Shown here piece after piece: positions 3,528-22,283 of a DNA stretch of 48,609 nt. Under the pieces are notes generated by a model. It was not told the origin of the DNA, searched no databases, and saw only the letters and a program-made list of their open reading frames with translations. Origin of the DNA: Candidatus Nanoarchaeia archaeon. GTDB lineage: Archaea > Nanobdellota > Nanobdellia > SCGC-AAA011-G17 > GW2011-AR18. Both the position numbers and the translations under genes were made by a program. Each line of letters opens with the position of its first letter. Within the stretch, counting starts at the first letter, position 1. The stretch is taken from NCBI GenBank assembly GCA_035655455.1, contig DASRUL010000006.1, positions 1 through 48,609 of the forward strand. Direction: 5' to 3'.

Positions 3528-3754
3528 ATTCTTTCATCGCTCTCCAGAACGCAGGAAACAATGGCTGATTACTCACTCTACAAACCACTAAATAACACCG
3601 TCCAAGGATACGCAGCAAACACACAGCACGGACAACACCAGAACGCTATATCCTACACAACCAGCGCGTCCCAACAACCCAGAATAGTCGGCAGCCGCTG
3701 CCCAACAGAAGGAAAATGCCGGGTGTGCACGCGCCTATGCATGATGGAATAAGC

Positions 3755-4321: not shown

Positions 4322-4338
4322 TCTTCTTTTGAAAAAGT

Positions 4339-5346: not shown

Positions 5347-5438
5347 AGTTTTTGGTGGCGTTTGATTCTATTTAAAGATATTCTTTTGAAACTACTTTCG
5401 AATGAGTTTTTTAGAATGGTTGGAGTTCGTTAAAATTT

Positions 5439-6035
5439 TTATTCTTCGTATCTTCGCGTAACGTCATTCCAGTTGATGATTTTCATGAAGTTGTCTACCC
5501 ATTCTGGTCGTTTGTTTTGGTATTTCAGGTAGTAGGCGTGTTCCCAGACGTCGCAGACGAGGAGGGGTTGTAATCCTGGCACCCAGATTTTTTGGTGGTT
5601 TTCTACTGCGAAGATGTGGAGTCTTCCTGTGGAGTCTTTTGCGAGGGCGCCCCATCCTGATCCCTCAACTGCGATGGTTGCTGCTTTGAAGTGGGCAACA
5701 AATTTGTCCCAGGAGCCGAAGGAATCTTCGATCGCTTGGAGGAGCGTTCCTTCTGCTTTGTTGTTTTCTTTGCCTGGTCTCATGTTTTCCCAGAACATGG
5801 TATGGAACCAGTGTCCTGCGCCGTGGAAGGCCATTTCTCGTTCCCAGTGTTTGATAGTTTCAAAGTTGCCTGTTTCTCGGGATTCTTTGAGTTTGGCCAT
5901 GGCTGTATTAAGTCCTTTGACATAGGCCGCATGGTGTTTGTCGTGATGGATTCTGAGGGTTTGTTCGTCGTAGTAGGGTTCTAGGGCGTTGTAGGGATAG
6001 GGGAGTTCCGGCAGGATGAATTCTTCATGGGCCAT
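5439..6035 (-). CDS. sod: Fe/Mn superoxide dismutase
   Basis: 198 aa with LPYPYNALEPY, HHDKHHAAYV and DVWEHAYYL(KYQN), which are canonical Fe/Mn-SOD metal-ligand motifs. A TATA element (TCTATATATAG) lies at 6062-6072 on the coding strand. Confidence 0.95.
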   Translation of the reverse strand: MAHEEFILPELPYPYNALEPYYDEQTLRIHHDKHHAAYVKGLNTAMAKLKESRETGNFETIKHWEREMAFHGAGHWFHTMFWENMRPGKENNKAEGTLLQAIEDSFGSWDKFVAHFKAATIAVEGSGWGALAKDSTGRLHIFAVENHQKIWVPGLQPLLVCDVWEHAYYLKYQNKRPEWVDNFMKIINWNDVTRRYEE

Positions 6036-6108
6036 TAGTTGTGCAGGTGTTTCTCTTTCAGACTATATATAGATTGTGGGTGTAAACTAAAAAACTCTTG
6101 AAGAAACA

Positions 6109-6116
6109 TTTATATA
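6109..6116 (+). promoter_or_regulatory. TATA box for the pentapeptide-repeat gene (divergent from the sod promoter)
   Basis: TTTATATA is centred about 27 nt upstream of the ATG at 6140, within an AT-rich divergent intergenic region (6036-6139). Confidence 0.5.
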
Positions 6117-6139
6117 CTTTATATATTCTATATATCTCT

Positions 6140-6640
6140 ATGAAAAGACCTATTTCGGGAAACGTTTTGGTTGGCGACATCCTCGCTGGAAGAAGAGATT
6201 TTCAGAGGATTCAGCTTAGAGGGTTCAATTTTTACGATTCTCCTCGTCTTGTCGATCTTGAGGATTACTTAGCACGTCAGGATTTTGAGCAAAATCCTTT
6301 GTTGTTCGCAGAGGCAGAGATGGAACATGTTTATGCAGTTGGGCTCCTCCTTCCCTATAGCAAGTTCCAGGACGCAAAATTGAGGAACGTGGATTTCTGT
6401 TTTGCTGACCTGAGGTATGCTGATTTTTGGCATGCGGACTTAAGGGAAGTGGATTTTAGAAGCGCGCTTACCGAGGGGGCGTGTTTTGGTGGGACGAGAG
6501 CGTATCGCGTAGTGGGAGTGGAAGAGCTGATAAAAGATCCCCCAAAGGAAGAGTATCATTTTAGAACCGAAGATGTTGAAATAGGCTCACCCGAATATCC
6601 CTTTGTTGATCCAAAGAGGGCTAGAGCGTTCTTTTCATAA
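6140..6640 (+). CDS. pentapeptide-repeat protein
   Basis: Runs of A(D/N)LxX-type repeats: AKLRNVDFCFADLRYADFWHADLREVDFRSALTEGACF. I chose the start at ATG 6140 (MKRPISG) from the TATA spacing; the track start at 6098 is a TTG. Confidence 0.7.
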   Translation: MKRPISGNVLVGDILAGRRDFQRIQLRGFNFYDSPRLVDLEDYLARQDFEQNPLLFAEAEMEHVYAVGLLLPYSKFQDAKLRNVDFCFADLRYADFWHADLREVDFRSALTEGACFGGTRAYRVVGVEELIKDPPKEEYHFRTEDVEIGSPEYPFVDPKRARAFFS

Positions 6641-6976
6641 GGATTTTTTTCTAAAGAGTTCAATGAGAAAATAGGTTGCAATAAGAAGAAATACGTGAAC
6701 AATTCCTGAAAGAACAGATTTTGAAGTTAAAGCTCCGGCTTGGACGAGTAATGCGCCGAAAAACGCAGAAGAAAAGATTGAAAGCGCGCCATGATAAGGA
6801 TTCACAAGACCTTTTTTAAAGTAAGAAAGCATAAGCAAAACAACCAAACTTGTCAGACCAATCAAGGAGGCGCGCAACGGATTCACATTTGGATAAAGAT
6901 AAATATACAACGTGTCCACAAGATACTGCATCACAAGCAATCCCAACACTATAAGCAGCGTTTTTTTAGCCTTCAT
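6635..6976 (-). CDS. small polytopic membrane protein (hypothetical)
   Basis: Hydrophobic ORF (MKAKKTLLIVLGLLVMQYLV..., LIGLTSLVVLLMLSYF, SAFFGALLVQAGAL, IVHVFLLIATYFLI). The internal Met start avoids a 60 nt overlap with the upstream gene. Confidence 0.45.
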   Translation of the reverse strand: MKAKKTLLIVLGLLVMQYLVDTLYIYLYPNVNPLRASLIGLTSLVVLLMLSYFKKGLVNPYHGALSIFSSAFFGALLVQAGALTSKSVLSGIVHVFLLIATYFLIELFRKKSL

Positions 6977-8156
6977 AAGAAACAAAATACACCTTTCCCG
7001 CATTATCATCAGACACAAGCAAGCCATCCCTGAAATTTATCATATCCACTGGCCTTCCCCTCACCACAGCACCGTCAAGCCAGCCTGTCGCGAAATCCCT
7101 AAACGACTTTTTTTCCAAATCAACCAAGAAAATCTTGTATCCAGTCGGAGGTTCCCTATTCCACGATCCATGAGACGCGACAAACATCTTCCCACGGTAC
7201 TCCTCAGGAAATTTGTTTCCAGTGTAGACCGCCAATCCCAACACGCCAGAATGCGCAGGCAAATCAACAAGGCTCGGCTCTGTACTTGCGCAAGGATTCT
7301 TTTCTTTTTCAAAACCAGCGTCATGAACTTGCCTTCCATAACAGTACGGCCACCCATAATCCTTTCCCTCCTGAAGAATATTTATCTCATCAGGAGGAAG
7401 ATCATTTCCAAGCTCGTCCCTCCCATTATCAGTAGCATAAATCGTTCCCTCATGCTCAATAAAACCAACAGCATTCCTCAGCCCAGTCGCAAACGGCTTA
7501 CAACTCCTTCCCTCAAGATCACACTGCTGAATCGTACCCCGGCGCTTGTCCTCCTCGATACACACATTACACGATGACCCAATTGAAATAAGCAGTTTGT
7601 CGTTAACAATCTGAATCGTTCTCGTCCAATGAGAACCCTCTGGAAGGTCCACAACTTTCTCCATCGTTGTAAGATCAGGCTTGTTCCCCTTTTCTTTTAT
7701 TCTCATCACCCTATCCTCTTCAGCAATATACACCCAATCCTGATAGAAAGCAATCCCATGAGGATTATTCAAGTTCTCAAGAAAAACGCTCATCGTTTCC
7801 ACTTTCGCATCTTTGTCCTTATCCTCCAAGGCATAAATCTTTCCCTGCTTCGAGACTGTAACAAACACCGTGTCATCCTTCAACGCCAACAAGCGCGCAC
7901 CATTATTCGGACCAGGCGTCGAAACAAGCGATCCTCCAAGGTTGTCAGCGAACGTCTCAATCTTAAACCCCAGAGGCATCCTCACGAAATCCAACCCGCT
8001 TGTGTGAAGCGCAGGCTTCAACGTGAGCTTCTCAGCAACAACCACGAGCACAAACACAAGCACAGCAACAACAAGCACAACCTTTATTATTTTTTTAAAA
8101 AGAATCAAAACCATTATCGCAGCCACACCAAGCATTATCCACACAAGCGGGTCCAC
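6966..8156 (-). CDS. membrane-anchored PQQ-dependent (soluble-type) sugar/sorbosone dehydrogenase-like beta-propeller
   Basis: 396 aa. It has an N-terminal TM (LVWIMLGVAAIMVLILF...VVAVLVFVLVVVA). Family-typical motifs are GLRNAVGF, DNGRDELGNDLPPDEIN and GKDYGWPYCYG. A TATA element (TTATATAA) at 8177-8184 lies about 25 nt upstream. Confidence 0.75.
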   Translation of the reverse strand: MDPLVWIMLGVAAIMVLILFKKIIKVVLVVAVLVFVLVVVAEKLTLKPALHTSGLDFVRMPLGFKIETFADNLGGSLVSTPGPNNGARLLALKDDTVFVTVSKQGKIYALEDKDKDAKVETMSVFLENLNNPHGIAFYQDWVYIAEEDRVMRIKEKGNKPDLTTMEKVVDLPEGSHWTRTIQIVNDKLLISIGSSCNVCIEEDKRRGTIQQCDLEGRSCKPFATGLRNAVGFIEHEGTIYATDNGRDELGNDLPPDEINILQEGKDYGWPYCYGRQVHDAGFEKEKNPCASTEPSLVDLPAHSGVLGLAVYTGNKFPEEYRGKMFVASHGSWNREPPTGYKIFLVDLEKKSFRDFATGWLDGAVVRGRPVDMINFRDGLLVSDDNAGKVYFVSYEG

Positions 8157-8252
8157 ACCACCCTCTTGATCTACTATTATATAAACATGATGAACTTTTC
8201 AAAAACTTTCTACAAAACCTTTAAAAGAGGTATGCTTTTGTTCATCACTTAC

Positions 8253-9193: not shown

Positions 9194-9305
9194 TTTGCTC
9201 TACTTATGGAAAGAACATAATTTTATAAAACTTTATATTTGTGGATGTCAAGGTTCTATAACTTGCTCAGTAGATTTATATACAAGTTACTACAATTGTA
9301 TACCT

Positions 9306-9605
9306 ATGGCTGAAAGCGTTTCTGTGAGAATAGGCGAAGATGAACTTTTAGAAATAGAGAAAATTTCAAAATTTGAAAAAAAATCGAAATCAGAGGTGTT
9401 GCGATCTGTTTTAGAGAAAGGGCTAAAAGAGGAAAAGTTAGAGATTGCAATAAAACGTTTTAGTAAAAATGAGATAACTATCGCGTCTGCAGCCAAGCTC
9501 GCGGGCGTTTGCTTGTCTGCTTTCATGGATGCTCTGTCAGAAAGAAAAATTCGATTTCACTATGGTTTAAAAGAGCTTGAGAAGGATTTTGAGGGTTTGC
9601 TTTGA
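9306..9605 (+). CDS. antitoxin: ribbon-helix-helix N-terminus fused to a UPF0175-like domain
   Basis: MAESVSVRIGEDELLEIEKISKFEKKSKSEVLRSVLEKGL is RHH/CopG-like. ITIASAAKLAGVCLSAFMDALSERKIRFHYG is UPF0175-like. The stop overlaps the start of the downstream PIN-like gene (TTGA). Confidence 0.7.
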   Translation: MAESVSVRIGEDELLEIEKISKFEKKSKSEVLRSVLEKGLKEEKLEIAIKRFSKNEITIASAAKLAGVCLSAFMDALSERKIRFHYGLKELEKDFEGLL

Positions 9606-10135
9606 TTTCTAATTCGTCACCCTTAATCGCTTTAACAAAAGTCGGTCTCTTAACAGAGGCAAAGAAACTTTATTCTTCTCTTGAAGTTCCAGAGGTAGTT
9701 TTTAACGAGAGCATACTTGCAGGTTTAGAGAGTGGAAAACAAGATGCGATCATCTTGAACGCGCTCTACAAAGAAGGGTTCATTAAAAAAATAAAATTGG
9801 ACAAAAAACACGCTGAGATAAGCAAGAAAATTGAGACAGAATACCACCTAGACCAAGGGGAAGCAGAAGTTCTTGCTCTTGCTCTCCAATTAAACCAAAA
9901 AACAATACTTCTAGACGAGGCTCTGGGAAGAAATGTTGCAGAACTGTTTGAGTTGACCCCGAAAGGCTCGTTAAGGGTTATTTTAGAGTGCTACAATCAA
10001 AATTTAATCACAGAAGAAAAAGTATATGTGAAAGTAGGGGAGTTAGTAAAAATTCTAAGGATAGATTCTGAGGTTCTCACTCGCCTTTGGGATTTATTTG
10101 AGATTGCAAAGAAGAAGAAAACAAATAAAAAATGA
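9602..10135 (+). CDS. PIN-like (DUF3368-type) putative toxin
   Basis: 177 aa. SNSSPLIALTKVGLL...VPEVVFNE and DQGEAEVLALALQLNQKTILLDEALGR match the DUF3368/PIN pattern usually paired with UPF0175. The first acidic residue appears replaced by Asn and the start is a TTG, so activity and start are uncertain. Confidence 0.6.
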   Translation: MISNSSPLIALTKVGLLTEAKKLYSSLEVPEVVFNESILAGLESGKQDAIILNALYKEGFIKKIKLDKKHAEISKKIETEYHLDQGEAEVLALALQLNQKTILLDEALGRNVAELFELTPKGSLRVILECYNQNLITEEKVYVKVGELVKILRIDSEVLTRLWDLFEIAKKKKTNKK

Positions 10136-10148
10136 ATGCATCGTTATC

Positions 10149-10156
10149 TTTATATA
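10149..10156 (+). promoter_or_regulatory. TATA box for the giant-protein operon
   Basis: TTTATATA is centred about 27 nt upstream of the ATG at 10180. This supports 10180 as the true start (near-leaderless) and an operon promoter independent of the upstream TA pair. Confidence 0.55.
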
Positions 10157-10179
10157 CAGTTAAAAGACATTTCTCCATC

Positions 10180-12315
10180 ATGAAAAAAAAGGGGCAGGTC
10201 AGCGTCTTTGTCATCATCGGAATCCTTCTCGTCCTGCTCACCGGAACCTACCTCGCCTACAAATACTTCGGCATTGAAGAATCACTCAGAGAACGACGCC
10301 AACTCCTTTCCAGAGTTCCAGCACAATTCCAACCAGTCGCCAGCACCCTCAACCAGTGCGTAGCCAAAGTAACAGCAGACGCCCTCACCCTCGTCGGAAG
10401 CCAAGGAGGTTACGCAACGCTTCCCCAAGATCCACTTCCCACAACTTTTATCACTCCAATCAAAAGAAACCTCGACATCATCCCAAACTCAGGCTTCCAA
10501 ACCCCCCTCTGGTTCAGAGAAACAGGAAACGGCCTCCAAGAAACAGCAATTCCAACAAAAAAACAAGTCGAACAAAACCTCGCCCTTGTCATCAATGAAA
10601 AATTCTCCTCCTGCGTCGAAAATCTGACAAGCTTCACCAGCCAAGGCTTTCACCTCCTCAACATCGCAGACAAGCCAACATCTGCTGTAAGAATCCTTCC
10701 AGAGCGCGTCGAGGCACAGGTTGAATTTCCAGTAACGCTCTCCCTCAACGAGATCCAATACACCCTCGAGGCCCACACCGCAGAAGTGGAAACAACGTTT
10801 GGACAATTGTACGACGCGGCTGTAGAAATCTTCGAAACAGAAAACACCGGCTTCTTCCTCGAAAACAAGACACTCGACCTCCTTATCGCAGACGATGCAA
10901 TCCCTTTCTCAGGATCAGACCTCTCCTGCACCGAACACGTCTGGTCAAAGAGAGGCGTGATTGAACGAGTAAAAAACGCGCTCTTTGAAAACGTCGCGGC
11001 CATGACCATCAAAGGATCAAACACTGACAAGGATCCAGACTACCTCACCTTTGACGCGATGAAACGCGACAGAAAAGCCATCACCATCAACCTGATGTAC
11101 AATCCGGCATGGCCAACCTTCATCGAGATCAGCCCCTCCAAAGGAGACACCTTGACCTCTGACCCAATCACAAAACACACCGGCAATCTCGTCACGAGCA
11201 TCTTATCTTCGTATTTTTGTTTGAACAATTACCATTTTGTTTACACCATCAAATATCCAGTGCTTATCACCCTCACGGACGAACAAGGATTTAACTTCCA
11301 ATACGCAACAGAAGTCATCCTCGAAAGAAACCTACCCAGAAAAAACACCATCCTTCCCCTCACCCTTCCTGACACGACCTCACCATTATGTGACTATTCA
11401 ACAGCACCACTTACTATCACCACGCTCGCTGTCAACAACGAAGGATTCTTAGCGCCTTTAAATAACGTCCAACTCTCCTTCAAATGCTTTCCCACAACCT
11501 GCACCCTTGAAGAAACAGGCAAAAACAAAAACACCGTCACCCTCCTTAGCCCACCCTGCGTCAACGGCATTGTCGAAGGCCAAAAAGAAGGCTACTTCAA
11601 CGGAAAAACAGTCGTCGCAACAAACACCAAAGAGCACCAAGACATTGATCTCGTCCTCGAACCTTTGTACGAAAAAAACGTAGAAGTCTTTGTCATCGAA
11701 AAAGGCACAGGGAAAACGCGAGAACCTTACTCTTCAGAACTCGCAACCTTCGAATTCAGACACAAAGACGCACGCTTCACCACCAGCTACTCCACCCAAG
11801 AGGAAGGAGCATCCTGTGACAAGGACGAAGACTGCGGCCCGGGACTTGACTGCAAAAGAGATTCATGCATCTTACCCAACTGCGAGAAAGACACTGACTG
11901 CTCCTTACATCAAAAGTGCGTCTCCCAACAATGCGCGCCTAAAGACAATATCAAGCTCCTTGTCGGAGATTACTTTGTTACCTCTTCCCTCTCCAGATCA
12001 AGCAGCATCCCACTCACGACACAAAAACGCGAAGTAGAAAAATGCGTCGAAACCGGAAGACAAGGGTTACTTGGCCTGTTCCTCACAGAAGAAAAATGCT
12101 TCAAAACAGAAATCCCGCCAGTCGAGCTCAAAAACGTCATCGTCGGAGGCGCAACCTTCGAATTCACGTTTGATCGTGAAACGCTCAACAGCGAAGAACC
12201 TTTGAAACTCTACATCCTCACTGACGAACTTCCCGCGGACCTCGAAGGATTCGCTGAAATCCAGACAAGCTTAAGCACAAATAAAGACCATCCAATGTTC
12301 AGGTACCCGGCATGA
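10180..12315 (+). CDS. large secreted protein with a prepilin-like (class III) signal peptide and tandem 4-Cys modules (operon gene 1)
   Basis: 711 aa from ATG 10180. The N-terminus is MKKKG|QVSVFVIIGILLVLLTGTYLAY: a basic stretch, then G-Q, then a hydrophobic helix. Near the C-terminus are two tandem modules, SCDKDEDCGPGLDCKRDSC and NCEKDTDCSLHQKCVSQQC (nt 11812-11940). I recognise no protein family. Confidence 0.8.
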   Translation: MKKKGQVSVFVIIGILLVLLTGTYLAYKYFGIEESLRERRQLLSRVPAQFQPVASTLNQCVAKVTADALTLVGSQGGYATLPQDPLPTTFITPIKRNLDIIPNSGFQTPLWFRETGNGLQETAIPTKKQVEQNLALVINEKFSSCVENLTSFTSQGFHLLNIADKPTSAVRILPERVEAQVEFPVTLSLNEIQYTLEAHTAEVETTFGQLYDAAVEIFETENTGFFLENKTLDLLIADDAIPFSGSDLSCTEHVWSKRGVIERVKNALFENVAAMTIKGSNTDKDPDYLTFDAMKRDRKAITINLMYNPAWPTFIEISPSKGDTLTSDPITKHTGNLVTSILSSYFCLNNYHFVYTIKYPVLITLTDEQGFNFQYATEVILERNLPRKNTILPLTLPDTTSPLCDYSTAPLTITTLAVNNEGFLAPLNNVQLSFKCFPTTCTLEETGKNKNTVTLLSPPCVNGIVEGQKEGYFNGKTVVATNTKEHQDIDLVLEPLYEKNVEVFVIEKGTGKTREPYSSELATFEFRHKDARFTTSYSTQEEGASCDKDEDCGPGLDCKRDSCILPNCEKDTDCSLHQKCVSQQCAPKDNIKLLVGDYFVTSSLSRSSSIPLTTQKREVEKCVETGRQGLLGLFLTEEKCFKTEIPPVELKNVIVGGATFEFTFDRETLNSEEPLKLYILTDELPADLEGFAEIQTSLSTNKDHPMFRYPA

Positions 12316-15300
12316 GAAAAAAAAGCGTGATCGCACTGTTCTGCATGATGCTGATAGTCACCAGCCCCATGGTTCTCAGCCAACGCTTCTCAACATCCTC
12401 AGACTTTAACCTCCAAGAGTCAGAACCAATCGTAGATTTCACCACCTCGCCCTTTGACCGAGCCTCAGCTGTTTACAGCAAAACGTTTGGCACGCCCCAA
12501 GACGTCGGAGAAGCACTCATCATCTACGCAGGACAGCCACAACCACCCCTCATCAGAGCCTCACTCGCAGAAGACCAAGAAATACCTGTGTTTATTCCCC
12601 TCAAAACCACAGACATTGGTTCAGTGCTTTCAACCCTGACAGGAGATGTTTCAGAACGAGACCCATTCACAGGATTAACAAGCATTCCCCGCATTAGCAA
12701 CGTCGTTGTCAGACTCAACAAAACAAATCCTTACGTAAAAACAGTCAGATACATCCCGCCAAAAACAGGTTTCACAAAAGACAACCTTGGTTATTTAGTC
12801 GTCATTTTAAACAAGCTGAAAAACGAAACCAGCCTGCCAACCTCAGGAAGCATCCAAGCAGGCATCGCCAGCGTCCAACTTCCAGGAGAAGTCTTTTCCA
12901 GCCTCAACAACACGCCAGTCATTCCCTTAGAACTCAACGCAGAAATCCTTTTCGACCTCACCTCAGGAACCCTGCTCAGCCTCGGAGAACAAACCCTCAC
13001 CCTCAAACAAGAATCAGAACAAGCATTCCTGCAAAAACCCTCACGAGAAGAAAACGCGTTTTACAACAAGAGAGCGTATCTCCGCGCGAACGCCATCTCA
13101 TCAGACAGGGTATCGTTTACCGTGTACAATAAAGAATTACATTCGCTCTCTCTCTTTAATCCACCAAACGAACCAGCAGGCGTACCTGTTTCCTCGCTCA
13201 CCCTCTCCCGCTCAAGCCCAGAATCACGACCCATCAGACTCAGAATCAGCTCCAACGCGCTCGAAGACACCGTGCGATTTAGGCTCAATGAGATTGTCCT
13301 TCCAGAAGACAGGGTTAGCTACCGATTAATCGCAGGCGGAAAAACCTACGAAAGAAAAGCAAACATCCGCAGTCCCTTGTTTCCGCGATCACGCTGGGAA
13401 ATCCAGAGAATAGCACAGTCAGACCCTGAACCAACCACCCTCAAAGACCTCATCGAAAAAGGAATCATCCTTGACACTACCTCAGAAGAAAAAGCAAAAC
13501 AAGCAGCATCAGGAGAACTCAAGCTCATCACGCACACCCTTGTCCTCAGAAACACCGCAACAGGAGAAACACGAACACTTCAACGAAATGTCCTGACAGG
13601 CCTTGTTTTTTCCTTTGACACAGCACCAGTAGACGACACCACCGCGAGCTTCTTAGAAAAAAAATACTGCCCAGAACCAGATCCAGACAAGGCAGACTTA
13701 GGCTGCGCAGCAGTCCACACCTTTAAAAAAATCACCCAAGACTTTCCCCATACAGCAGAAGCAAAAGACAGCCACAAACAACTCTTCGAGATTTACGAGC
13801 AGAAGCTCATAGATTACGCCGCGTGCGATAAGACAGGACCAAATCCCAATGATGTCGCCAACCTCAACGAGTGCCAGGCCTTCCTCAGGGACACACAAAC
13901 ACTTGCTTATTACTACGCGAGCAAAATCCAAGCTTCAGACCCAGAGCTCATCCAGCGACTGCAAGCGGGATACGGAGGAGCCGGCGGCTTCGAATATTTG
14001 ACAGACGAAGGCATCTCAGTCCAACTCAACTACGTAGAGAAAATCACAAACGAAGAAAAAGGCTCCGCCACACTCCGCGTGAACGGCGTCGAACATCAAA
14101 ACTTGCGGGTAGGCATAAACATTCCAGGAACTGAAGGCACGGCAATCACAGGAGAACCCTTCACCCTTGAAATCAGCGCCATCAGATCAAGCACTGTCCA
14201 TATCATAAAGAGAGCAAAAACCTCCCAACGCGTTCTCGGCTCGTCACAAACCCTCGTCCTCGGAAAAAATAATGTCCTCCTTCAGGAAAGAAGATCTGCA
14301 GACGGACGTGTTGAGCGAGAATCTGTTGACATCGAACTTGTGAACGTCAATACCAACGTCGAGGCATCAGTCAGCATCATCCCAAACGCAGGCCTCGGCC
14401 TCGCACGCTCTTCCTTCACTGTCATCATTCCTGTCGAGCCACGACCATTGAAGAATATTGGAGAGAAATTAAAAGACCACATCAACGCCACGAGAAAACT
14501 GGTCGCGGACTTAGACAAGGTCATCCAAAAACTCGACAGCGTCGTCAGAACATGGAAGAAGATTTGTTTGGTGACGTTCGCGTTTGTCACAGTCAAAAGC
14601 TCCTTCCTCGGAGGAACAACACGGGCACTCGCACGCCGCGGCGTCAGCGAGCTCTATAAAAAAGACTGCAACCAAAAAGCCAGCACAGGGCTCTTCGAGA
14701 GCGCTGATGATTGCCTAGCATCCAGAGCAGATGATATCTCCAAAGACGTCGACGCGAACCAGCGCGCGATTGAACATGTCCAACAAGAACTCTCAGGACA
14801 AACACCAGCCACGCTTAAAACGTGCGGAGACGTTCCCTTCCAAGAAGTCAAAGCCCTCGGCGCGACTATTGACGACTGCAGAGACTATTTACGGCTAAAC
14901 GCGCTCAGGAGCGACACCATCTCAGACACTTTCGCCAAAGGCGTTGATCAACAATTATCAGCACTCAAATTCGAAGGAAAGAAACAACAGTACGAAGCAG
15001 CAGAACAATGGCTCAAGGGTTATCCAGACTTCACGAGAAAGTTTGGCGAGGATGAAGACGCAAGGCTTGAAGCGCTAAGATTTTACACAAACTCGGCAGA
15101 AGCACAAAAAGAAAGCGCAACCTCACAAAAAAATGTTCTCCCTCTCTCACATCTCCTTCCCACAGAAGACAACAAAGCAACAGCCCTATTACCTCAAACA
15201 GGAACGAATGATCTTGGACCAACAACCCTTGTCAAAGTCACCAGGCTGCAACGCGCAGTCTACGAATCAGGAGCAGAAGGTGTTGTGAGCAGCATACAAA

Positions 15301-17510
15301 AGGCTTACTGCAAAGACTTACATGATCCTCAATGCATCCAAGGCCAGCTCGATCTTTGGAACAGCATTTCAGACGAACCCTTATACGCGCGCCAAGAATT
15401 TGTGAATCCTGCTACCCTTATAAAAAATTTGGGAACTGCACACCCTTACCTTTCAAGCTATACCTTGCTCACGACAAAAAATAAAGCGCTCGCCATCTCC
15501 AGCACAACACCACCAGCAGACTTCAACCTCTACTCCAGCCAAGTCGTTGACGTCAACAACCAACTACGAAGCCTAGACTACGCCTACTCACAGGGAGCAG
15601 AGGCAGGCGGAGACCTTCTCGCACAATACGACCCAGAATCAGGCCAAGCCTTCTGCTACCCCACAGGAAGAGACGGAGAATACGTTCTTGTCTTAGAACG
15701 CTTCCAAGGCACAGGAAAAGTAAAAATCTTCAGGGCAATGAACGTCGGCCTTAACGGCGTCATCGAATGCGGCTCAGGAGACGATGTCATCGTTCTTGAC
15801 GAATCAGCACTCAGCCTGCCAGCAAACCAGAGAAAAAGACTTGATTATTTATCCATTGTTGACCGCGCGCCACGCTGCCAAAAAGAAGGAACAAGAGTAG
15901 GAAGCGTCACAAAGAAAAACGGAAAAACAGTAGGCGTACGCTGCAGCACCAAACAAGCAAAACTCAACCTCCAACTCAACAGCCCAAAATGCATCGACGT
16001 CATGGAACCAGAAGACTGCACCATCCTGTTCAACGCGTGCGATCCAGTCATGTGCCCAGCAACACGCTGCAACCTCGGAGGCAAGTACCAAGTAGACGAC
16101 GTCATCCAATCAGGCATTGTCGGCTCAGTCTTTCTCTGCGCACCAAACGTGAAACAAGGCGTTGTTGTTCCTTTCTGTTTAACAGGAATACTCGCAGGAC
16201 TCAAACACATCAAGAGCATCCTCCAATCCTATGCAGATTGTTTAGAGGCGAACCTGAAAGACGGAAAGAACGTCGGCTTCTGCGATTATATCAGAAGCGT
16301 CGGCGTCTGCGAATTAATCTGGAGAGAAACCATTAACCTCTTCAACATCAAAGGCGGCGTCATTGATTATTTATCAGAAAAGGCCTTTGGCGAGCCAGAA
16401 GGAGGCGCAGAATACTTGACCTTCCAGCAATCCCTCCAAAACGTCGGAGACTCGTTCAACTACTTTACCACAGAATACTCCAACACGTACGTGGCGGCAT
16501 TAAAAGGGTCATCCACAGAAGAAATAGGATCCCAAGTATGCAGGCTTGGCGTTTACGGAAGACTGCCAACTGTTGGGGATGTGCTTGACAAACTCTCAGA
16601 ACCTGAAGATCCCCCACAATTCTTCGCGCTTCTCGACGAGGCGCCCTATGTCCAAGACATCGGAGAAGCACCCCTTGTTCCACGCGTCCCCTCAAGCGCA
16701 CAGGCCTTATCCAATTATAAAATATTTTATCACATCTACGCGGGAACAGGATTCGCAGCACAACAAGCAGTCTTCACAGACCCAGTCAATCAGGCAACAG
16801 GGCGACCAAACAAAGCAGTCACCTACTCTGTGTACTTGATCAATAAAGAATTAGGCTTACCTCCCTTGTATATGACCTCAGAAGAAGAACTCGGCCAAGT
16901 TTCCGCAACCATTCCCAGAGGGCAGTATGTGCAAAAATCAGTCCAGCGCGTTAGCCAAACAGGATACAACGAGGTATGCATCAATTTAAATGGAAAGCCC
17001 TCTTGCGGATTTGGAAAAGTCTCATCAGCATTCTCCCTGAACTATATCAATGATAAACTTGTCGAAGCAGAGGCAGGCAAGAAGGTTAAGAGCGCAGAAG
17101 AATGCCTTCCAGACCCGCCAACAACAGGAGCAGCGCTCGGCAGCTTCGTCACCCCAGAACGTTACGGCCTCGTGAACACTGGAGTGGTACGCGTCTGCAA
17201 CCCAACACCACCAACAGCAGACACGACGCGATGGGCAGCAGCCGGAGAATGCGGCAAAGACAAGAACGGGGTTGATCGCGGCATATGCTGGCTTGACAGA
17301 AACTCGTTAAATATTAAAAACCTCGAAACAAGAAGCGACGTGCTCGGAGCATTAAAACAACGCGACATTCTCAAAAAACAAGGACTTGAAGGAGACATCC
17401 TCACAGCAGAGCAAAGCAACCAACTCCTCGAACAATTACGAGAACGCCGCGACCATGTCCTTGAAAAACTCCGGCTAGAAGTACAACGCTTGTTAGAGGA
17501 GGAAGCATGA
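12312..17510 (+). CDS. giant secreted protein, 1732 aa (operon gene 2)
   Basis: The ATG overlaps the upstream stop (ATGA). It has a Sec-type signal (MRKKSVIALFCMMLIVTSPMVLSQ), a central hydrophobic segment (ICLVTFAFVTV), a region with 12 Cys in about 150 aa plus hydrophobic stretches (nt ~15870-16330: NACDPVMCPATRCNLGG...GIVGSVFLCAPN...VVPFCLTGILAGL) and a C-terminal coiled coil (LLEQLRERRDHVLEKLRLEVQRLLEEEA). Confidence 0.85.
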   Translation: MRKKSVIALFCMMLIVTSPMVLSQRFSTSSDFNLQESEPIVDFTTSPFDRASAVYSKTFGTPQDVGEALIIYAGQPQPPLIRASLAEDQEIPVFIPLKTTDIGSVLSTLTGDVSERDPFTGLTSIPRISNVVVRLNKTNPYVKTVRYIPPKTGFTKDNLGYLVVILNKLKNETSLPTSGSIQAGIASVQLPGEVFSSLNNTPVIPLELNAEILFDLTSGTLLSLGEQTLTLKQESEQAFLQKPSREENAFYNKRAYLRANAISSDRVSFTVYNKELHSLSLFNPPNEPAGVPVSSLTLSRSSPESRPIRLRISSNALEDTVRFRLNEIVLPEDRVSYRLIAGGKTYERKANIRSPLFPRSRWEIQRIAQSDPEPTTLKDLIEKGIILDTTSEEKAKQAASGELKLITHTLVLRNTATGETRTLQRNVLTGLVFSFDTAPVDDTTASFLEKKYCPEPDPDKADLGCAAVHTFKKITQDFPHTAEAKDSHKQLFEIYEQKLIDYAACDKTGPNPNDVANLNECQAFLRDTQTLAYYYASKIQASDPELIQRLQAGYGGAGGFEYLTDEGISVQLNYVEKITNEEKGSATLRVNGVEHQNLRVGINIPGTEGTAITGEPFTLEISAIRSSTVHIIKRAKTSQRVLGSSQTLVLGKNNVLLQERRSADGRVERESVDIELVNVNTNVEASVSIIPNAGLGLARSSFTVIIPVEPRPLKNIGEKLKDHINATRKLVADLDKVIQKLDSVVRTWKKICLVTFAFVTVKSSFLGGTTRALARRGVSELYKKDCNQKASTGLFESADDCLASRADDISKDVDANQRAIEHVQQELSGQTPATLKTCGDVPFQEVKALGATIDDCRDYLRLNALRSDTISDTFAKGVDQQLSALKFEGKKQQYEAAEQWLKGYPDFTRKFGEDEDARLEALRFYTNSAEAQKESATSQKNVLPLSHLLPTEDNKATALLPQTGTNDLGPTTLVKVTRLQRAVYESGAEGVVSSIQKAYCKDLHDPQCIQGQLDLWNSISDEPLYARQEFVNPATLIKNLGTAHPYLSSYTLLTTKNKALAISSTTPPADFNLYSSQVVDVNNQLRSLDYAYSQGAEAGGDLLAQYDPESGQAFCYPTGRDGEYVLVLERFQGTGKVKIFRAMNVGLNGVIECGSGDDVIVLDESALSLPANQRKRLDYLSIVDRAPRCQKEGTRVGSVTKKNGKTVGVRCSTKQAKLNLQLNSPKCIDVMEPEDCTILFNACDPVMCPATRCNLGGKYQVDDVIQSGIVGSVFLCAPNVKQGVVVPFCLTGILAGLKHIKSILQSYADCLEANLKDGKNVGFCDYIRSVGVCELIWRETINLFNIKGGVIDYLSEKAFGEPEGGAEYLTFQQSLQNVGDSFNYFTTEYSNTYVAALKGSSTEEIGSQVCRLGVYGRLPTVGDVLDKLSEPEDPPQFFALLDEAPYVQDIGEAPLVPRVPSSAQALSNYKIFYHIYAGTGFAAQQAVFTDPVNQATGRPNKAVTYSVYLINKELGLPPLYMTSEEELGQVSATIPRGQYVQKSVQRVSQTGYNEVCINLNGKPSCGFGKVSSAFSLNYINDKLVEAEAGKKVKSAEECLPDPPTTGAALGSFVTPERYGLVNTGVVRVCNPTPPTADTTRWAAAGECGKDKNGVDRGICWLDRNSLNIKNLETRSDVLGALKQRDILKKQGLEGDILTAEQSNQLLEQLRERRDHVLEKLRLEVQRLLEEEA

Positions 17511-20500
17511 AACTCTTTTCTTCTCTCAGCATTTTCCTTCTTATGGTCTTTTTAGGAAGCGTCCTTGCCACAGCACAAGTAACTTCTGAAGACGTCAAAG
17601 AACGCCTGATCGGAGCAGCATTCTTTTTAGAAGATGGAGGAGAACCTTATTTTTATTGTCCAAGAGTCAAAGAAGGATCCTGCCTGAAACTAAGCCCAAT
17701 AGGCTGGCTTGACAATTCAGGAAATATTGTTAATGATGAAGACGCTCTTAAAAGTTTAAATGATCTTCTCGCAAAACAAACTGAAGAGACACGCAAGACC
17801 TTCATAGAAAAAGCGTTTATTGGTGATACATTCACCTGGACAAGCCCTGCTGGAAAGAGGATTGATTACATATACTGTCCTGAAGTAAAAGAACAAGCAT
17901 GCTCAAGGGCAAGCCGCACAGGATGGTTGATCAAAGAAACCGGAAATGAGGCTTTAGCGACCAAAGGAGGAGAAGCTGTCTTAAACCATTTGAACGAGCA
18001 ACTCAAAACAAAAGTCGATGAAGCTTTTTCATCAACAATCGAAGACGAATCATCAGAAGAGCAAGTGGTTTTTAGAACAGGTGACTGCACATCTCGTGAA
18101 CGAAAATTTTCAAAAAACAAGTGTTTGGAACGCGAAGAGAACGCAGCAAGCCTCATCAGAGAATTTCTAGGATTAAATTACGAGACAGTTCGAACCTACT
18201 CTCTTGAAGACAAAGCAGTCATTCAGGCTTTATACGATCGCGCAGTCGGATTCAAAAGAATCGCAGAATTAAAACGGCAGTATGAAGGCGCTGTCGAGGT
18301 GAAGCCCGCGGAGAAGAAGCTGTTGGTTCCTGTAGGGGGTAATTTTGAGGCGGTGTTGGATCATGAACAGTCCGCATTAACAGTGAGTTATACGGATCCT
18401 GAAAATAGTGATCCTGATCTGAAGTTCAGGTTGTCGTTGAATGGACAGCCTCTTCCAGCAGTTTTTACAAAAGACGGAGAAATCGCTCGCGCGCAGATTA
18501 GTTTCGAGGATGTTGAGAAGAAGGTTGGTTTTTTTGGTATTTTCAAGCGTTTGCCTGCCTTGGTGCTTTCAGTTCAGCATAAGGGAATAATTAAGGAGTT
18601 TCATCCTAATCTTGTGAGAAGGGTGACTGGCGAAGTTAGTGAAAATGCGGAAGTTATTTTTACATATAATGACAAGGATCGTCTCGGGATTAGCGTAAGT
18701 GGCGTTTTGGCTGGAGAACAGGCGTTGTCTTTCAGAGATAAGGTGTTTGTGTTGACGCCGAACTCTTTGAAAGGAGAACCTTCTGGAAACGCTGCGTTTG
18801 ATGTGAAGGATTTCCCCGCCTTGTTTGAAGCTGTGAAATCAGATGATAGCATTTTAGGCGAGGTTGAATTTGTGGTTAATAATCAGCAGAGAAAGCAGGC
18901 ATATGCTCCCACGGAAATATATTATATGTATACGCGGAAGGTTGTTGAGAGGGAAGCTGTTTCTGCTGAGACTCCAGAGGTTGTTTCTCCTGCTGAGGCG
19001 TGTGGAAAATGTGGAGACGGTATTCTTTTAGTTTGTACAAAAACGGCGTGTGAAACTGAAACGCTGGAGAAGTATGGAGCGCGTTGTAAATTCTTGCCAA
19101 ATATTCTAACGTTTAATCAGTTAGGAAATTGCATGCCACTCGCGCAGGAACTAACCTTGAGCCCTTCAGAGATTATCCCTCAAGTGGAGAAGTTTTGTAC
19201 GCCGAGCCAAACTAAAGTAATTAAGGAAGAACTGGATTTCGAAGCGAAGAGCCGTCGCGTGTTAGGTTTCAGAAAATTCGTGGAGAGCGCGACTGATGAC
19301 GGGATGGAGCGAATGCTCTTGTACGCGATCATGAGTGTTGAGTCTGGAGGGGATCCTAATGCGCAGCATGAGAATGAGGGTGGCTCTGTTGATGTCGGGC
19401 TGATGCAATTCAATGATGGCACTGCGCCGCGCGTGTTTATTCCTTATGAAGACCAGTTTGGAAACAGCTGTGGGAATACTAATACGAAGGAGACTAATGT
19501 TTGCTATGTGTGCGATAAAAAGGGTTGTGGGAGCGGTGACGCAAGGAGGGTTCCTGAGATCGCGATTAAGGGCGCGAAAAAGTTATTGGATTTAAATAGA
19601 AATGCTATTCGCCGTGAATTTGAGAAGTCTGTTGGGAATGGGGAAACGCCGGCCCAGTTAAGTGGAGAAACGTTAGAGAAGCTCACGATTTTGTCTTATA
19701 ATCGCGGTCCTGGCAGGATTATGGGCGCGGTAAAAGAGCTTGCTGCACAGAAAGGAGATAAAGGCGGTGAAATTACGTTTGAGGAAGTTGTCGAGCGTGC
19801 CAAATTTGGCAAGGGCGCGCTTTGTTATGTTTCGCGCGTGTTATTTTACGCTGGCGCCTACGCTGGAGAGTTCGGAATTGGTGGTACAGAATCGACACCG
19901 CCGCAAGCTGTAGCTCCCGCGCGAGTGACGGACGATCTTACGCCTGAAAGGCCAAAAGAGATTTCAAAAGGCGCTCCGGTTGATGCTGAGCATGTATACT
20001 ACTTCACTGTTGACGGCAGATTCCGTTTTCCTAATGAGAATCCTGTTCCTCAGAATACGTTGCCCGTGAAAGGGGCAACGTACGCTGTTGGTCAGAGTGA
20101 AGGGATTTTTGTTGAGCAGACGACGGAAGAGCAGATAACGTTTGCATTCTTTAGGACGAATGCGCTGGGCGTTGTTACGCAAGTGGATTATCCGATTGTT
20201 TTGAATAGTCAGCAAGAAGAGGCATTCCTTGTTAAAGGAAAGTTTAGGGTTTTCTGGCAAGGAGGTAAGAACCTTGGGGTGTTGTATCGGCCTGTAGTGC
20301 AGGAACCTGGCGAGGACGCGGAGAGCGCGCGAGTGAATCCCGGAGAGGTATACTTGTTTTCTGAGATAAGTCCGACGCTTTTGAATCCAATTTTTAAATT
20401 AACAGATAAAGAAGAGCCTGTACGCGGGAAAGAGTACATCTCCCCGCAGAAAGGATCGGCTGGCGGGCGTGCTGTGAAAGGAGTTTATATCCTTGATGTT

Positions 20501-20668
20501 AATACCCATGACGGGATTACCTTTTTCTATTTCAGCACAAATAACAAAGGTGTTGTTGGGGGAATGACGCGGGCGACGGTGACCGAGACGAAGACTGAGG
20601 AGGTTCCTCAGGGCACATATAGGTTTTATTTTGCTCCTCCAGATGTGTTGCGGGTTGAAAAATTATGA
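17507..20668 (+). CDS. secreted 1053-aa protein with a GH23/SLT lytic-transglycosylase-like domain (operon gene 3)
   Basis: ATGA overlap with gene 2. Sec signal is MKLFSSLSIFLLMVFLGSVLATAQV. Two tandem Cys-pair repeats occur: YFYCPRVKEGSCLKLSPIGWL and YIYCPEVKEQACSRASRTGWL. SLT motifs are LLYAIMSVESGGDP (E-S), VGLMQFN and ILSYNRGPG, at nt ~19300-19760. Two C-terminal beta-rich repeats contain ITFAFFRTNALGVV and ITFFYFSTNNKGVV. Confidence 0.85.
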   Translation: MKLFSSLSIFLLMVFLGSVLATAQVTSEDVKERLIGAAFFLEDGGEPYFYCPRVKEGSCLKLSPIGWLDNSGNIVNDEDALKSLNDLLAKQTEETRKTFIEKAFIGDTFTWTSPAGKRIDYIYCPEVKEQACSRASRTGWLIKETGNEALATKGGEAVLNHLNEQLKTKVDEAFSSTIEDESSEEQVVFRTGDCTSRERKFSKNKCLEREENAASLIREFLGLNYETVRTYSLEDKAVIQALYDRAVGFKRIAELKRQYEGAVEVKPAEKKLLVPVGGNFEAVLDHEQSALTVSYTDPENSDPDLKFRLSLNGQPLPAVFTKDGEIARAQISFEDVEKKVGFFGIFKRLPALVLSVQHKGIIKEFHPNLVRRVTGEVSENAEVIFTYNDKDRLGISVSGVLAGEQALSFRDKVFVLTPNSLKGEPSGNAAFDVKDFPALFEAVKSDDSILGEVEFVVNNQQRKQAYAPTEIYYMYTRKVVEREAVSAETPEVVSPAEACGKCGDGILLVCTKTACETETLEKYGARCKFLPNILTFNQLGNCMPLAQELTLSPSEIIPQVEKFCTPSQTKVIKEELDFEAKSRRVLGFRKFVESATDDGMERMLLYAIMSVESGGDPNAQHENEGGSVDVGLMQFNDGTAPRVFIPYEDQFGNSCGNTNTKETNVCYVCDKKGCGSGDARRVPEIAIKGAKKLLDLNRNAIRREFEKSVGNGETPAQLSGETLEKLTILSYNRGPGRIMGAVKELAAQKGDKGGEITFEEVVERAKFGKGALCYVSRVLFYAGAYAGEFGIGGTESTPPQAVAPARVTDDLTPERPKEISKGAPVDAEHVYYFTVDGRFRFPNENPVPQNTLPVKGATYAVGQSEGIFVEQTTEEQITFAFFRTNALGVVTQVDYPIVLNSQQEEAFLVKGKFRVFWQGGKNLGVLYRPVVQEPGEDAESARVNPGEVYLFSEISPTLLNPIFKLTDKEEPVRGKEYISPQKGSAGGRAVKGVYILDVNTHDGITFFYFSTNNKGVVGGMTRATVTETKTEEVPQGTYRFYFAPPDVLRVEKL

Positions 20669-21429
20669 AAAAAGCAAGCGCTTTGTTTAATAAGAATTTT
20701 TTGAAGGTGTTCTTTTTTGATCTTCTCCTCACCATCCTCTTACTCTCCCTGCTGCTCTTTGTCAGAACACAATCAAAAACCTACTTTGAAGATATCCAAG
20801 CATTCTCAGGAGAAATCGCAGAAATAGAACAAATCCTCAGCAAGGAAGACGCCTCAGCAGAAGAAGTCGCACGCGCCCAAGAAACAATCTCAACACTAGA
20901 CAGCATCACCACAAAGTCTTTGCTCTTAAACAGCGTCCTCTTTCCCTTGGCTGTCATCATTCTCTGGATGACCATTGGCTGGCTGTCATGGAGAGGTTTC
21001 ACCAACGTTTCCTGGAAGAGGTTTGCGTTATCCTCTCTGCTTCCTCTCACGCTCTTCTTTTTCCTGATTCTGTATAGTCTCGATATACTCTCCTTGATCC
21101 TGTTCAAAGATACCCAATCGTCCTGGATTATTTTTTCTTTCCTCCTCGTCCTCTTTTTAACAGCAGTGTATTTCTTCCTCATCATCATAGGAAAACCAAC
21201 ACTCACCCTCAAAGAACTATTCTTTTTTGGCATTCACACTTTTAAGAAAATATGGCTGAGACTTTTCCTTCTCACCCTCTTAGGAATTATTTACCTTACT
21301 CTGATCTCGCTCGTGTTCGTTTTCACTTATGTGAACATGTCCATCCTCCTTCCAGCACTCTTCCTTCTCGCTGTCCTTCTACTTCTTGCATTCCAAAAAC
21401 AAGCCTTTGTTAAAGCACTAGAATCTTAA
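20665..21429 (+). CDS. polytopic membrane protein (operon gene 4)
   Basis: ATGA overlap with gene 3. 254 aa with about 6 hydrophobic helices (FFFDLLLTILLLSLLLFV, VLFPLAVIILWMTIGWL, LSSLLPLTLFFFLILYSLDILSLILF, IIFSFLLVLFLTAVYFFLIII, LFLLTLLGIIYLTLISLVFVF, ILLPALFLLAVLLLLAF). Confidence 0.75.
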   Translation: MKKASALFNKNFLKVFFFDLLLTILLLSLLLFVRTQSKTYFEDIQAFSGEIAEIEQILSKEDASAEEVARAQETISTLDSITTKSLLLNSVLFPLAVIILWMTIGWLSWRGFTNVSWKRFALSSLLPLTLFFFLILYSLDILSLILFKDTQSSWIIFSFLLVLFLTAVYFFLIIIGKPTLTLKELFFFGIHTFKKIWLRLFLLTLLGIIYLTLISLVFVFTYVNMSILLPALFLLAVLLLLAFQKQAFVKALES

Positions 21430-21468: not shown

Positions 21469-21603
21469 TGCGGGGAACAGGATTTGAACCTGTGAAGGCA
21501 CTAAGCCACCAGGTTTCTTCAAACAACCACCTAAGCTAAGCCTTTTAGTTCTTTCTCTAAAGAATCTAAAATCTGGCCCGTTTGTCCACTTCGGTATCCC
21601 CGC
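21469..21603 (-). tRNA. class II tRNA, most likely tRNA-Leu (candidate anticodon UAG), with about 51 nt of intronic sequence in the anticodon arm
   Basis: Reverse complement: acceptor GCGGGGA/TCCCCGC plus discriminator A73. D-arm is CCGAAGTGGACAAACGG. The long variable arm is TGGCTTAGTGCCTTC. T-arm is ACAGG-TTCAAAT-CCTGT. The anticodon region is 68 nt rather than 17, and contains a 12-bp hairpin (TTTTAG-A-TTCTTT/AAAGAA-CTAAAA) and two CTTAG motifs. A TATA-like element lies about 28 nt upstream (21628-21634). Confidence 0.75.
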
Positions 21604-21700
21604 ATTCCAAAGTAAAGATATTCTCTCTTTATATGAGTTTTGAAGTTTTACGAAAAAGAAAGAGAAAACTATATTAATAAGTTATACGTGTATAATTAAA

Positions 21701-21922
21701 ATGATTGAAGTAGAATCACAACTCAAAGAATGGGGTAATTCCTTCGGCGTCCTCGTTCCAAAAGGCGTGACATTAAAAGAAGGTCTAAAAGAAGGAGACA
21801 AAGTTTTATTATTCCTCACCAAAAAAACAGACGCCCTCAAAAAGACATTTGGAACTGCAAAATTCAGAAAGACTACAGAGGAAATTCTCAAACAAGGGGA
21901 TAAAGACTCTTGGGATGAATGA
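21701..21922 (+). CDS. vapB: AbrB/SpoVT-fold antitoxin (VapB-like)
   Basis: 73 aa. SQLKEWGNSFGVLVPKGVTLKEGLKEGDKVLL is a swapped-hairpin AbrB/MazE-type motif. It overlaps the downstream PIN gene by 8 nt (ATGAATGA). Confidence 0.75.
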   Translation: MIEVESQLKEWGNSFGVLVPKGVTLKEGLKEGDKVLLFLTKKTDALKKTFGTAKFRKTTEEILKQGDKDSWDE

Positions 21923-22283
21923 ACAACTATTCTTTTTTGACACCTATGCTTTTTTTGAAATTATCAGAGGCAATCCCCTTTACGAAAAATACAAGAACGT
22001 TCCAGCAATAACATCTATCTTCAACCTTGCAGAACTAAATTACAACCTTAAAAAAGAACTAAAAGAAGAACAAGCTGACTACTATACTAATGAGTACGCT
22101 CCTTTTCTTGTAGAGGTGGATCTTGAAACACTAAAAAAGGCTATGTCTTTCAAGAAGAAATATAAATCCTTTTCCATTCCAGATGCAATAGGATACCACT
22201 TAGCATTAAAAATGAACGCAATGTTTCTTACAGGCGATGAAGGATTTCGCCACCTTCCTAATGTAGAATTTGTTAAAAAATAA
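21915..22283 (+). CDS. vapC: PIN-domain toxin (VapC-like)
   Basis: Starts MNEQLFFFDTYAFFEI, which carries the first PIN Asp. The C-terminus is IPDAIGYHLALKMNAMFLTGDEGF. I chose the internal ATG at 21915 rather than the track start at 21849. Confidence 0.75.
   Translation: MNEQLFFFDTYAFFEIIRGNPLYEKYKNVPAITSIFNLAELNYNLKKELKEEQADYYTNEYAPFLVEVDLETLKKAMSFKKKYKSFSIPDAIGYHLALKMNAMFLTGDEGFRHLPNVEFVKK

Follow-up and report, generated by a model that had tools for sequence, protein, structure and literature searches.

A predicted secreted lytic transglycosylase of a woesearchaeal archaeon, encoded next to a giant protein in a conserved four-gene cassette

Introduction

Large extracellular proteins with an SLT (GH23) lytic transglycosylase domain have already been described from Woesearchaeota and Pacearchaeota, together with the idea that they act on bacterial cell walls. 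In the passages of Castelle et al. (2021; PMC8204110) that concern them, such proteins are proposed to attach to the walls of bacteria and break them down, and Rinke 2013 and Castelle 2015 are cited as having noted them before; the corresponding passage of Vigneron et al. (2022; PMC9723730) describes a 'large lytic murein transglycosylase, GH23' in Woesearchaeota metagenome-assembled genomes (MAGs) and proposes bacterial predation. Later papers, among them PMC11537232, repeat the point for these lineages. Here we analyse p1053, a protein of 1053 amino acids (aa) encoded on a 48,609-nucleotide stretch of DNA (contig DASRUL010000006.1, hereafter the window), whose SLT motifs had been singled out in an earlier note on this DNA. 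So far as the relevant passages of the two papers describe their proteins, p1053 shares with them the lineage, the build of a very large secreted SLT/GH23 protein and the proposed target, and its likeness to family fam00969 of Castelle et al. is judged by lineage and architecture. Since both the proteins and the bacterial-wall hypothesis have been published, p1053 is a new instance of a known protein type. It differs from the large proteins of those passages in being split off, as a separate SLT protein, from a core of 1732 residues.

Archaeal enzymes directed at bacterial murein are also known from another lineage. Zoocin-A-like M23 peptidoglycan hydrolases of halobacteria kill bacteria in experiments, and M23 homologues have been detected in Nanoarchaeia too (PMC12352652). 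Like p1053 these proteins are archaeal, secreted and aimed at bacterial murein, but they are small modular lysins, not members of a cassette around a giant protein. They combine PG_binding_1 domains with an M23 endopeptidase, which is of another catalytic class, and they have been tested experimentally (PMC12352652). For the SLT proteins of DPANN archaea we found no experimental test in the literature.

The cassette in which p1053 is encoded, which the earlier note had missed, the fused and split forms of its products, their M23 and Amidase_2 partners and the Cys-rich insertion of the SLT domain do not appear in the passages of Castelle 2021 and Vigneron 2022 that deal with the large proteins. 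They make a modest addition to the published picture: although the basic idea is not new, a defined domain and a defined cassette open the hypothesis to concrete experiment. The compact SLT domain (aa ~580-795) models confidently and is suited to expression and assay, and the device that makes contact or penetrates may in fact be the giant partner p1732. To our knowledge, Woesearchaeota and Pacearchaeota, which are among the most widespread DPANN lineages, still lack an identified host. Among genomic signs that some of these organisms interact with bacteria, not with archaea, a surface set of murein-specific hydrolases would be the strongest.

p1053 carries a family-1 lytic transglycosylase domain

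The window encodes TFIIB, Orc1/Cdc6, an Sm/LSM protein, ribosomal protein S8e and a tRNA with an apparent intron, which mark it as archaeal, in agreement with the earlier note; FtsZ is a further archaeal marker. Its sequence is present in groundwater and soil metagenomes, and the source is a tiny groundwater archaeon of the Woesearchaeota (DPANN). The parts of p1053 are listed below, where P0015 is the syntenic orthologue of p1053 at the closest related locus (L038, with an open reading frame (ORF) 100% identical to P0015) and P0017 is a relative in which the SLT domain is fused to a giant protein.

17507..20668, plus strand: p1053, cassette gene 3, 1053 aa, predicted secreted multi-module SLT protein
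17507..17575, plus strand: predicted Sec signal peptide, aa 1-23, MKLFSSLSIFLLMVFLGSVLATA followed by Q (sequence inspection and hydrophobicity scan)
18119..18298, plus strand: linker module, aa 205-264, ...ALYDRAVGFKRIAELKRQYEG, common to the P0015 N-terminus and the P0017 junction
19268..19879, plus strand: SLT/GH23 family-1 lytic transglycosylase domain, aa ~588-791 (Pfam, alignment A1, profile, AlphaFold2, Foldseek)
19340..19345, plus strand: motif I, catalytic Glu612 (GAG) and Ser613 (TCT), invariant in A1 and aligned with the ES motif of MltE
19421..19576, plus strand: Cys-rich insertion between motifs II and III, aa ~639-690, family-specific (A1 conservation and AlphaFold2 strands)
19979..20638, plus strand: C-terminal beta-rich module in two copies, aa 825-893 and 928-1044

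The N-terminus of p1053, read by eye and with a hydrophobicity scan, has a hydrophobic segment with a cleavage site between A-T-A and Q, so that the earlier claim of secretion holds as a prediction; beyond the signal peptide the scan found no hydrophobic segment and no membrane anchor. The linker is 48% identical to aa 30-89 of P0015 over 60 aa. Both copies of the C-terminal module match a single module of P0015 (aa 895-1013), for which a binding role is possible.

Searching p1053 with the Pfam SLT family PF01464, as the earlier note had proposed, gave a score of 43.6 bits (E=2.5e-11) against a gathering score of 21.3. The alignment is restricted to profile positions 6-52 of 117, because about 90 residues part GLMQ from YN.G and only the N-terminal half can be aligned; in relatives of p1053, PF01464 aligns at positions 2-112. 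The 1053-aa ORF at 17507..20668 (plus strand) does contain the three motifs reported earlier (LLYAIMSVESGGDP, VGLMQFN and ILSYNRGPG), in the order given, and the proposed catalytic codon at 19340-19342 is indeed GAG, for Glu612, followed by TCT for Ser613. They belong to the four motifs of family-1 lytic transglycosylases, which we take to be those of the Blackburn and Clarke classification: after the Glu-Ser of motif I come, in order, motif II (G631-L-M-Q634), motif III (S730-Y-N-R-G734) and motif IV (C773-Y774, codons at 19823-19828). The domain thus occupies the interval 19300-19760 of the earlier note, but its true extent is wider, at about 19268-19879. In an alignment of the SLT domains of 12 relatives (A1), E612, S613, G631, Q634, Y731, N732, G734 and Y774 are invariant.

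Between motifs II and III lies the insertion that sets this family apart. In p1053 it contains C655, C666, C669, C674, D678, R680 and P683; across A1, C674, D678 and R680 do not vary, and C669 is conserved in at least 90% of the domains. Small beta elements are predicted for the insertion (AlphaFold2 strands at domain residues 65-99), which may hold disulfides or a metal site; the SLT domain as a whole has five Cys.

A profile built from A1 aligned both halves of the domain with enzymes of solved structure. It matched MltC (E=3.7e-10), Pseudomonas aeruginosa Slt (E=6e-10), LtgA (E=3e-9), Slt70 (E=1e-7), g-type lysozymes (E~1e-6), MltF (E=3e-6) and T7 gp16 (E=5e-5), so that g-type lysozymes were matched more weakly (about 1e-6) than lytic transglycosylases (about 1e-10). 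In goose-type lysozymes, extra acidic residues position water and give hydrolysis instead of anhydro-bond formation. Searches with the single sequence of p1053 were less informative: MltE was the sole PDB match, at an E of about 0.1, the NCBIfam matches IagB (4.4e-6) and EmtA (0.016) were both weak, and so was a match to phage 'transglycosylase' in PHROGs (1e-4).

Modelling from the single sequence was unusable (pLDDT 45), and the model was therefore built from the 12 sequences of A1, with which AlphaFold2 predicts one lysozyme-like domain at pLDDT 92 and pTM 0.89. Its best Foldseek matches in the PDB are MltE (E=8e-5, TM-score 0.55-0.65), MltC (TMq 0.60), MltF and Cj0843, and the top fold matches are lytic transglycosylases throughout; among viral proteins (BFVD) the matches are phage SLT, tape-measure or virion proteins. 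The span of the Pfam match in relatives, the profile alignment with Slt and MltC and the folding of the region as a single domain together show that the second half of the SLT domain is real. The two grounds on which the earlier note would have withdrawn its assignment, lack of a significant SLT profile match and lack of a lysozyme-like structure, fall away with these results, and the alignment to known enzymes for which it had asked places E612-S613 on the ES of MltE, and the A1 profile matches Slt70. We conclude that the SLT domain of p1053 is a family-1 (GH23, SLT-type) lytic transglycosylase domain with an MltE/MltC-like fold.

The domain has the fold, the four motifs and the catalytic Glu-Ser of MltE/EmtA, MltC, Slt70/Slt and LtgA (PF01464, GH23). 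It differs from these bacterial family-1 enzymes in its identity of ~15-18% in structural alignments and in the extra Cys-rich insertion, and, whereas they are periplasmic housekeeping enzymes, it sits in a predicted archaeal surface protein of 1053 residues whose producer presumably has no murein of its own. A second likeness, by analogy, is to the SLT modules that are tied to large envelope apparatus and cleave the wall locally, not in bulk, such as IagB of type III secretion systems, VirB1-type proteins of type IV secretion systems, T7 gp16 and phage tape-measure proteins: IagB is the best NCBIfam match of p1053, and T7 gp16 and phage virion proteins are among its profile and fold matches, all of which fall far short of the family thresholds. 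The cassette, however, holds no genes of such systems, and the resemblance would be one of function. Membership of the IagB/VirB1 type was rejected, the IagB match scoring 26.3 bits against a cut-off of 208 and no secretion-system families being found in the cassette. A place among the phage virion SLT proteins (T7 gp16, tape-measure) was likewise rejected, given that the cassette core is absent from IMG/VR, the PHROG match is weak and the phage tblastn matches are marginal.

A four-gene cassette of Woesearchaeota, Pacearchaeota and Nanoarchaeia

p1053 comes third in a row of four co-directional genes (p727, p1732, p1053 and p254) in which each stop codon overlaps the start codon that follows; p1053 is joined in this way to p1732 at its start and to p254 at its stop. 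The other three members are as follows.

10132..12315, plus strand: p727, cassette gene 1, one N-terminal anchor (TM-like, aa 18-46), 18 Cys
12312..17510, plus strand: p1732, cassette gene 2, giant protein with signal peptide, predicted secreted, 33 Cys, conserved core FNACDPVMCPATRCNLGG...
20665..21429, plus strand: p254, cassette gene 4, multi-pass membrane protein with about five hydrophobic segments

Neither p727 nor p1732 gave a Pfam, NCBIfam, PHROG or PDB match in sequence searches. Alignments of p727 with its orthologues begin at M17 (nucleotide 10180), with 40% identity at L010 and 26% at the Pacearchaeota locus L040, and the true start is likely to be this Met17, giving MKKKGQVSVFVIIG.... 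The N-terminus from Met17 (MKKKGQVSVFVIIGILLVLL; MRKRGQAAVFIIIG in the L010 counterpart) resembles what we take to be an archaeal class III signal peptide of the prepilin or FlaFind type. Were this so, p727 would be a giant pilin-like protein.

p254 is 26% identical to its L010 orthologue (E=2e-24), and a gene of similar size closes the cassette at L038, L007, L016 and L031. On the near-identical contig L001 the public gene call (13275-13727, minus strand, 150 aa) corresponds to window positions 20781-21233 on the minus strand and runs antisense to p254. Given that the plus-strand gene is conserved, and syntenic in several genomes, it is the deposited call that probably has the strand wrong.

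The distribution of the cassette was surveyed by scanning the conserved core of p1732 against one genome per GTDB species, A1 being too divergent to serve as the seed of a genome scan. All 151 confirmed loci lie in MAGs of Woesearchaeota, Pacearchaeota or Nanoarchaeia, to which the cassette is therefore restricted. The closest are L038, from a Woesearchaeota MAG, and L002, with 85-86% identity in the p1732 core, and the gene order with overlapping stops recurs at L038, L010, L007, L016 and L031. At the Woesearchaeota locus L004 (4327-14838) the giant ORF is interrupted, with 1460 aa and then an overlapping 473 aa, possibly because of a frameshift or a faulty assembly; an extra protein of 1609 aa without Pfam matches stands there between the giant ORF and the terminal membrane protein.

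Fused and split forms and their companion hydrolases

Over about 1700 residues, p1732 can be aligned to the N-terminal region of each of two larger proteins, P0017 (2227 aa; 37% identity, 1061 bits) and P0023 (2519 aa; 30% identity), both of which carry an SLT domain of the p1053 type at the C-terminus. p1053 in turn is colinear with the C-terminal extension of P0017, aa 223-260 corresponding weakly to 1803-1840 and the SLT region 577-788 to 2015-2222. It follows, as judged from these alignments, that the p1732/p1053 pair of the window represents in two pieces what is elsewhere one fused protein; being homologous to and colinear with the C-terminal part of fused forms of 2227-2519 aa, p1053 belongs with the large secreted SLT proteins.

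P0023 has, past its SLT domain, an extra C-terminal domain of the calcineurin-like phosphoesterase type.

Pfam was used to scan 11 cassettes, that of L004 in part, and at least one peptidoglycan-hydrolase domain was found in 7 of them:

Window: core; SLT on a separate protein
L038 (closest relative): core; separate P0015 with SLT, Peptidase_M23 (1.3e-27) and Amidase_2 (4e-27)
L010: core with SLT and M23, fused
L007: core with SLT, then an Amidase_2 gene
L016: core with SLT, then an Amidase_2 gene
L070: core with SLT
L009: core, then an Amidase_2 gene

The same scan gave no hydrolase domain at L031, L040, L044 or, in the part scanned, L004. Strict motif searches suggest SLT domains at the further loci L008, L015, L018, L019, L068 and L077; such counts of back-translated motifs are insensitive and set a lower bound on SLT prevalence.

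Relatives and origin of the SLT domain

A HMMER search of 1.84 billion representative proteins returned 13 matches to p1053 at E<1e-3. Eleven of these share aa ~585-790, and the fragments P0014 and P0018 match the N-terminal region only. A word-indexed homologue search found nothing but p1053 itself when given the full protein, and nothing when given the SLT domain. Outside the family, the closest sequences are generic short SLT proteins of bacteria that belong to many phyla (E 1e-16 to 1e-6); their matches cover the ES...GLMQ half, about 20-25% of the query. Neither the profile search nor tblastn against phages identified a bacterial or phage donor. The earlier suggestion that the domain was captured from bacteria or phage therefore stands in part, an ultimately bacterial origin being plausible.

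Some relatives have other gene contexts. A subfamily of 557-641 aa (P0019-P0024) combines an N-terminal anchor (MEREYTIG...) with the same insert-bearing SLT domain at L082/L083. P0025 (749 aa, Peptidase_M23 and SLT) ends a run of ~12 small co-directional ORFs without Pfam matches (L084, about 1-8250), on a contig that is otherwise archaeal, with RadA/Rad51, an RPA-like protein and ribosomal protein S2. This region may be a provirus or integrated element with a related hydrolase.

A proposed role in opening bacterial walls

We read p1053 as a secreted surface protein with an intact family-1 lytic transglycosylase domain that would open a bacterial wall locally together with the giant protein, a reading built on sequence comparison and modelling to which we give a probability of roughly 0.65. 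The SLT domain would cleave the beta-1,4 bond between N-acetylmuramic acid (MurNAc) and N-acetylglucosamine in bacterial peptidoglycan, with 1,6-anhydroMurNAc as the probable product. Acting with p1732 at the archaeal cell surface, p1053 would breach the wall of a bacterium at one spot, so that the archaeon could attach to that cell, feed on it or kill it. In a surface apparatus built around p1732 it would then be the part that opens the wall, a role that may be likened to that of the lytic transglycosylases with which phage virions and secretion systems pierce walls.

The choice of substrate follows from the company that the domain keeps. SLT, M23 endopeptidase and MurNAc-L-alanine amidase domains, which jointly address the main bond types of murein, recur on one secreted scaffold, and this makes murein the likeliest substrate and points to bacterial murein, not pseudomurein. 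Among the ~40 larger ORFs of the window that were scanned, none matched a murein-synthesis family, as the earlier note had maintained, and we know of no archaeon that produces murein. Of the targets that it had left side by side, the murein of another organism is the best supported, through the M23 and Amidase_2 partners, and pseudomurein is disfavoured.

Several points weigh against this reading. A physical association of p1053 with p1732 has fusion and synteny as its basis, and GH23 also holds hydrolytic lysozymes and some chitin-active enzymes, so that the reaction type is not fixed by sequence alone. The existence of cassettes free of hydrolases (L031, L040 and L044) implies that the core has a function independent of peptidoglycan cleavage. 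BLASTP found no similarity between p1053 and the fused giant of L010, even in the SLT region, which shows that the SLT modules of the cassettes are not all close relatives. The negative result for murein synthesis spans this window, the rest of the genome lying outside its scope; none of the RNA-seq runs contains the p1053 gene; and no host of this lineage (Woesearchaeota, Pacearchaeota) is known to us.

The principal alternative, which we consider unlikely but to be taken seriously, is that p1053 is a free antibacterial weapon of the bacteriocin type that lyses competitors, or a scavenger that digests peptidoglycan debris into amino sugars and amino acids, with no part in cell contact and no link to p1732. 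The protein has a signal peptide of its own and no membrane anchor, its SLT domain is on a separate, unfused polypeptide in this window, archaeal M23 hydrolases are secreted enzymes that kill bacteria (PMC12352652), and enzymes of peptidoglycan salvage are known in Pacearchaeota (PMC11537232). A build of several modules and 1053 aa would, however, be unusual in a diffusible lysin; the gene is translationally coupled to those of p1732 and p254 through its overlapping stop and start codons, and SLT is repeatedly fused to the giant protein in a form with which p1053 is colinear. The opposite possibility, that the SLT domain has ceased to be an enzyme and serves as a peptidoglycan- or glycan-binding adhesin, or that it is an autolysin remodelling the envelope of the archaeon itself, agrees with the functioning of some cassettes without any hydrolase and with the passage in which Castelle et al. 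name attachment beside degradation (PMC8204110). We regard it as improbable, since the Glu-Ser and other transglycosylase motifs are invariant among relatives of only 26-37% overall identity, the signature of a retained active site, and an autolysin for murein would be at odds with the lack of murein-synthesis genes seen in the window and with archaea not being known to make murein.

Just as improbable, in our judgement, is a target other than murein: the pseudomurein of a methanogen host, a chitin-like polymer or an archaeal surface glycan. A partnership of Woesearchaeota with methanogens has been proposed as syntrophy (cited within PMC9723730), which counts in its favour, and some GH23 enzymes act on chitin. 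The companion M23 and MurNAc-L-Ala amidase domains, however, are murein-specific, and the four motifs of the murein-cleaving enzymes are strictly conserved. Pseudomurein is made with beta-1,3-linked N-acetyltalosaminuronic acid and has no MurNAc and no free C6 hydroxyl, so that a mechanism forming a 1,6-anhydro bond is impossible there. The least probable of the alternatives is that the cassette is a virus, provirus or mobile element and the SLT domain a wall-piercing enzyme of a virion or transfer apparatus. The best viral fold matches are indeed phage tape-measure or virion SLT proteins, the GC content of the cassette exceeds that of its flanks, it lies between toxin-antitoxin pairs and beside a tRNA gene, and the relative P0025 comes after its run of small ORFs without known families. 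On the other side, the core has no relative among 2.9 million IMG/VR contigs, PHROG matches are confined to the weak 'transglycosylase' and the phage tblastn matches are marginal, at 22% of the query, on which grounds we rejected a viral or mobile origin; moreover, the cassette occurs in 151 species-level genomes of one lineage with differing flanks.

Beyond the local opening of a bacterial wall by p1053 and p1732, we tentatively entertain a wider proposal, the odds of which we rate as well below even: the whole cassette would be a lineage-specific machine for breaching bacterial envelopes, with SLT, M23 and amidase domains as interchangeable warheads that are either fused to it or docked. The prepilin-like anchored p727, the Cys-rich p1732 and the multi-pass p254 would together form a surface apparatus, which Woesearchaeota and Pacearchaeota would use to attach to bacteria and open them. 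If true, this would be the first molecular machinery for episymbiosis or predation of an archaeon on a bacterium.

Surroundings of the cassette in the window

The GC content of the cassette (window about 10500-20000) is 0.46-0.49, against 0.39-0.44 in the flanks. As the cassette is found throughout the lineage, the difference may stem from how large secreted proteins are composed and not from recent transfer. A tRNA gene of 135 nucleotides (21469-21603, minus strand) adjoins the 3' end of the cassette; it is detected by Rfam (40.6 bits) and missed by ARAGORN, which is consistent with an archaeal intron.

Toxin-antitoxin-like genes stand directly on both sides, a UPF0175/RHH gene with a PIN-like (DUF3368) gene upstream (9195-10135, plus strand) and a small ORF with a PIN gene downstream (about 21640-22283, plus strand). 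Others of this kind in the window are a 613-aa protein with HEPN and nucleotidyltransferase domains (1388-3229, plus strand) and a MazE-domain protein (35378-36295, plus strand). The window further encodes an Fe/Mn superoxide dismutase (5439-6035), an Ogg-type glycosylase (39128-39763), the alpha and beta subunits of a 2-oxoacid dehydrogenase E1 (40403-42446, plus strand) and a DnaJ-DnaK-GrpE chaperone cluster of bacterial type (43771-47429, minus strand).

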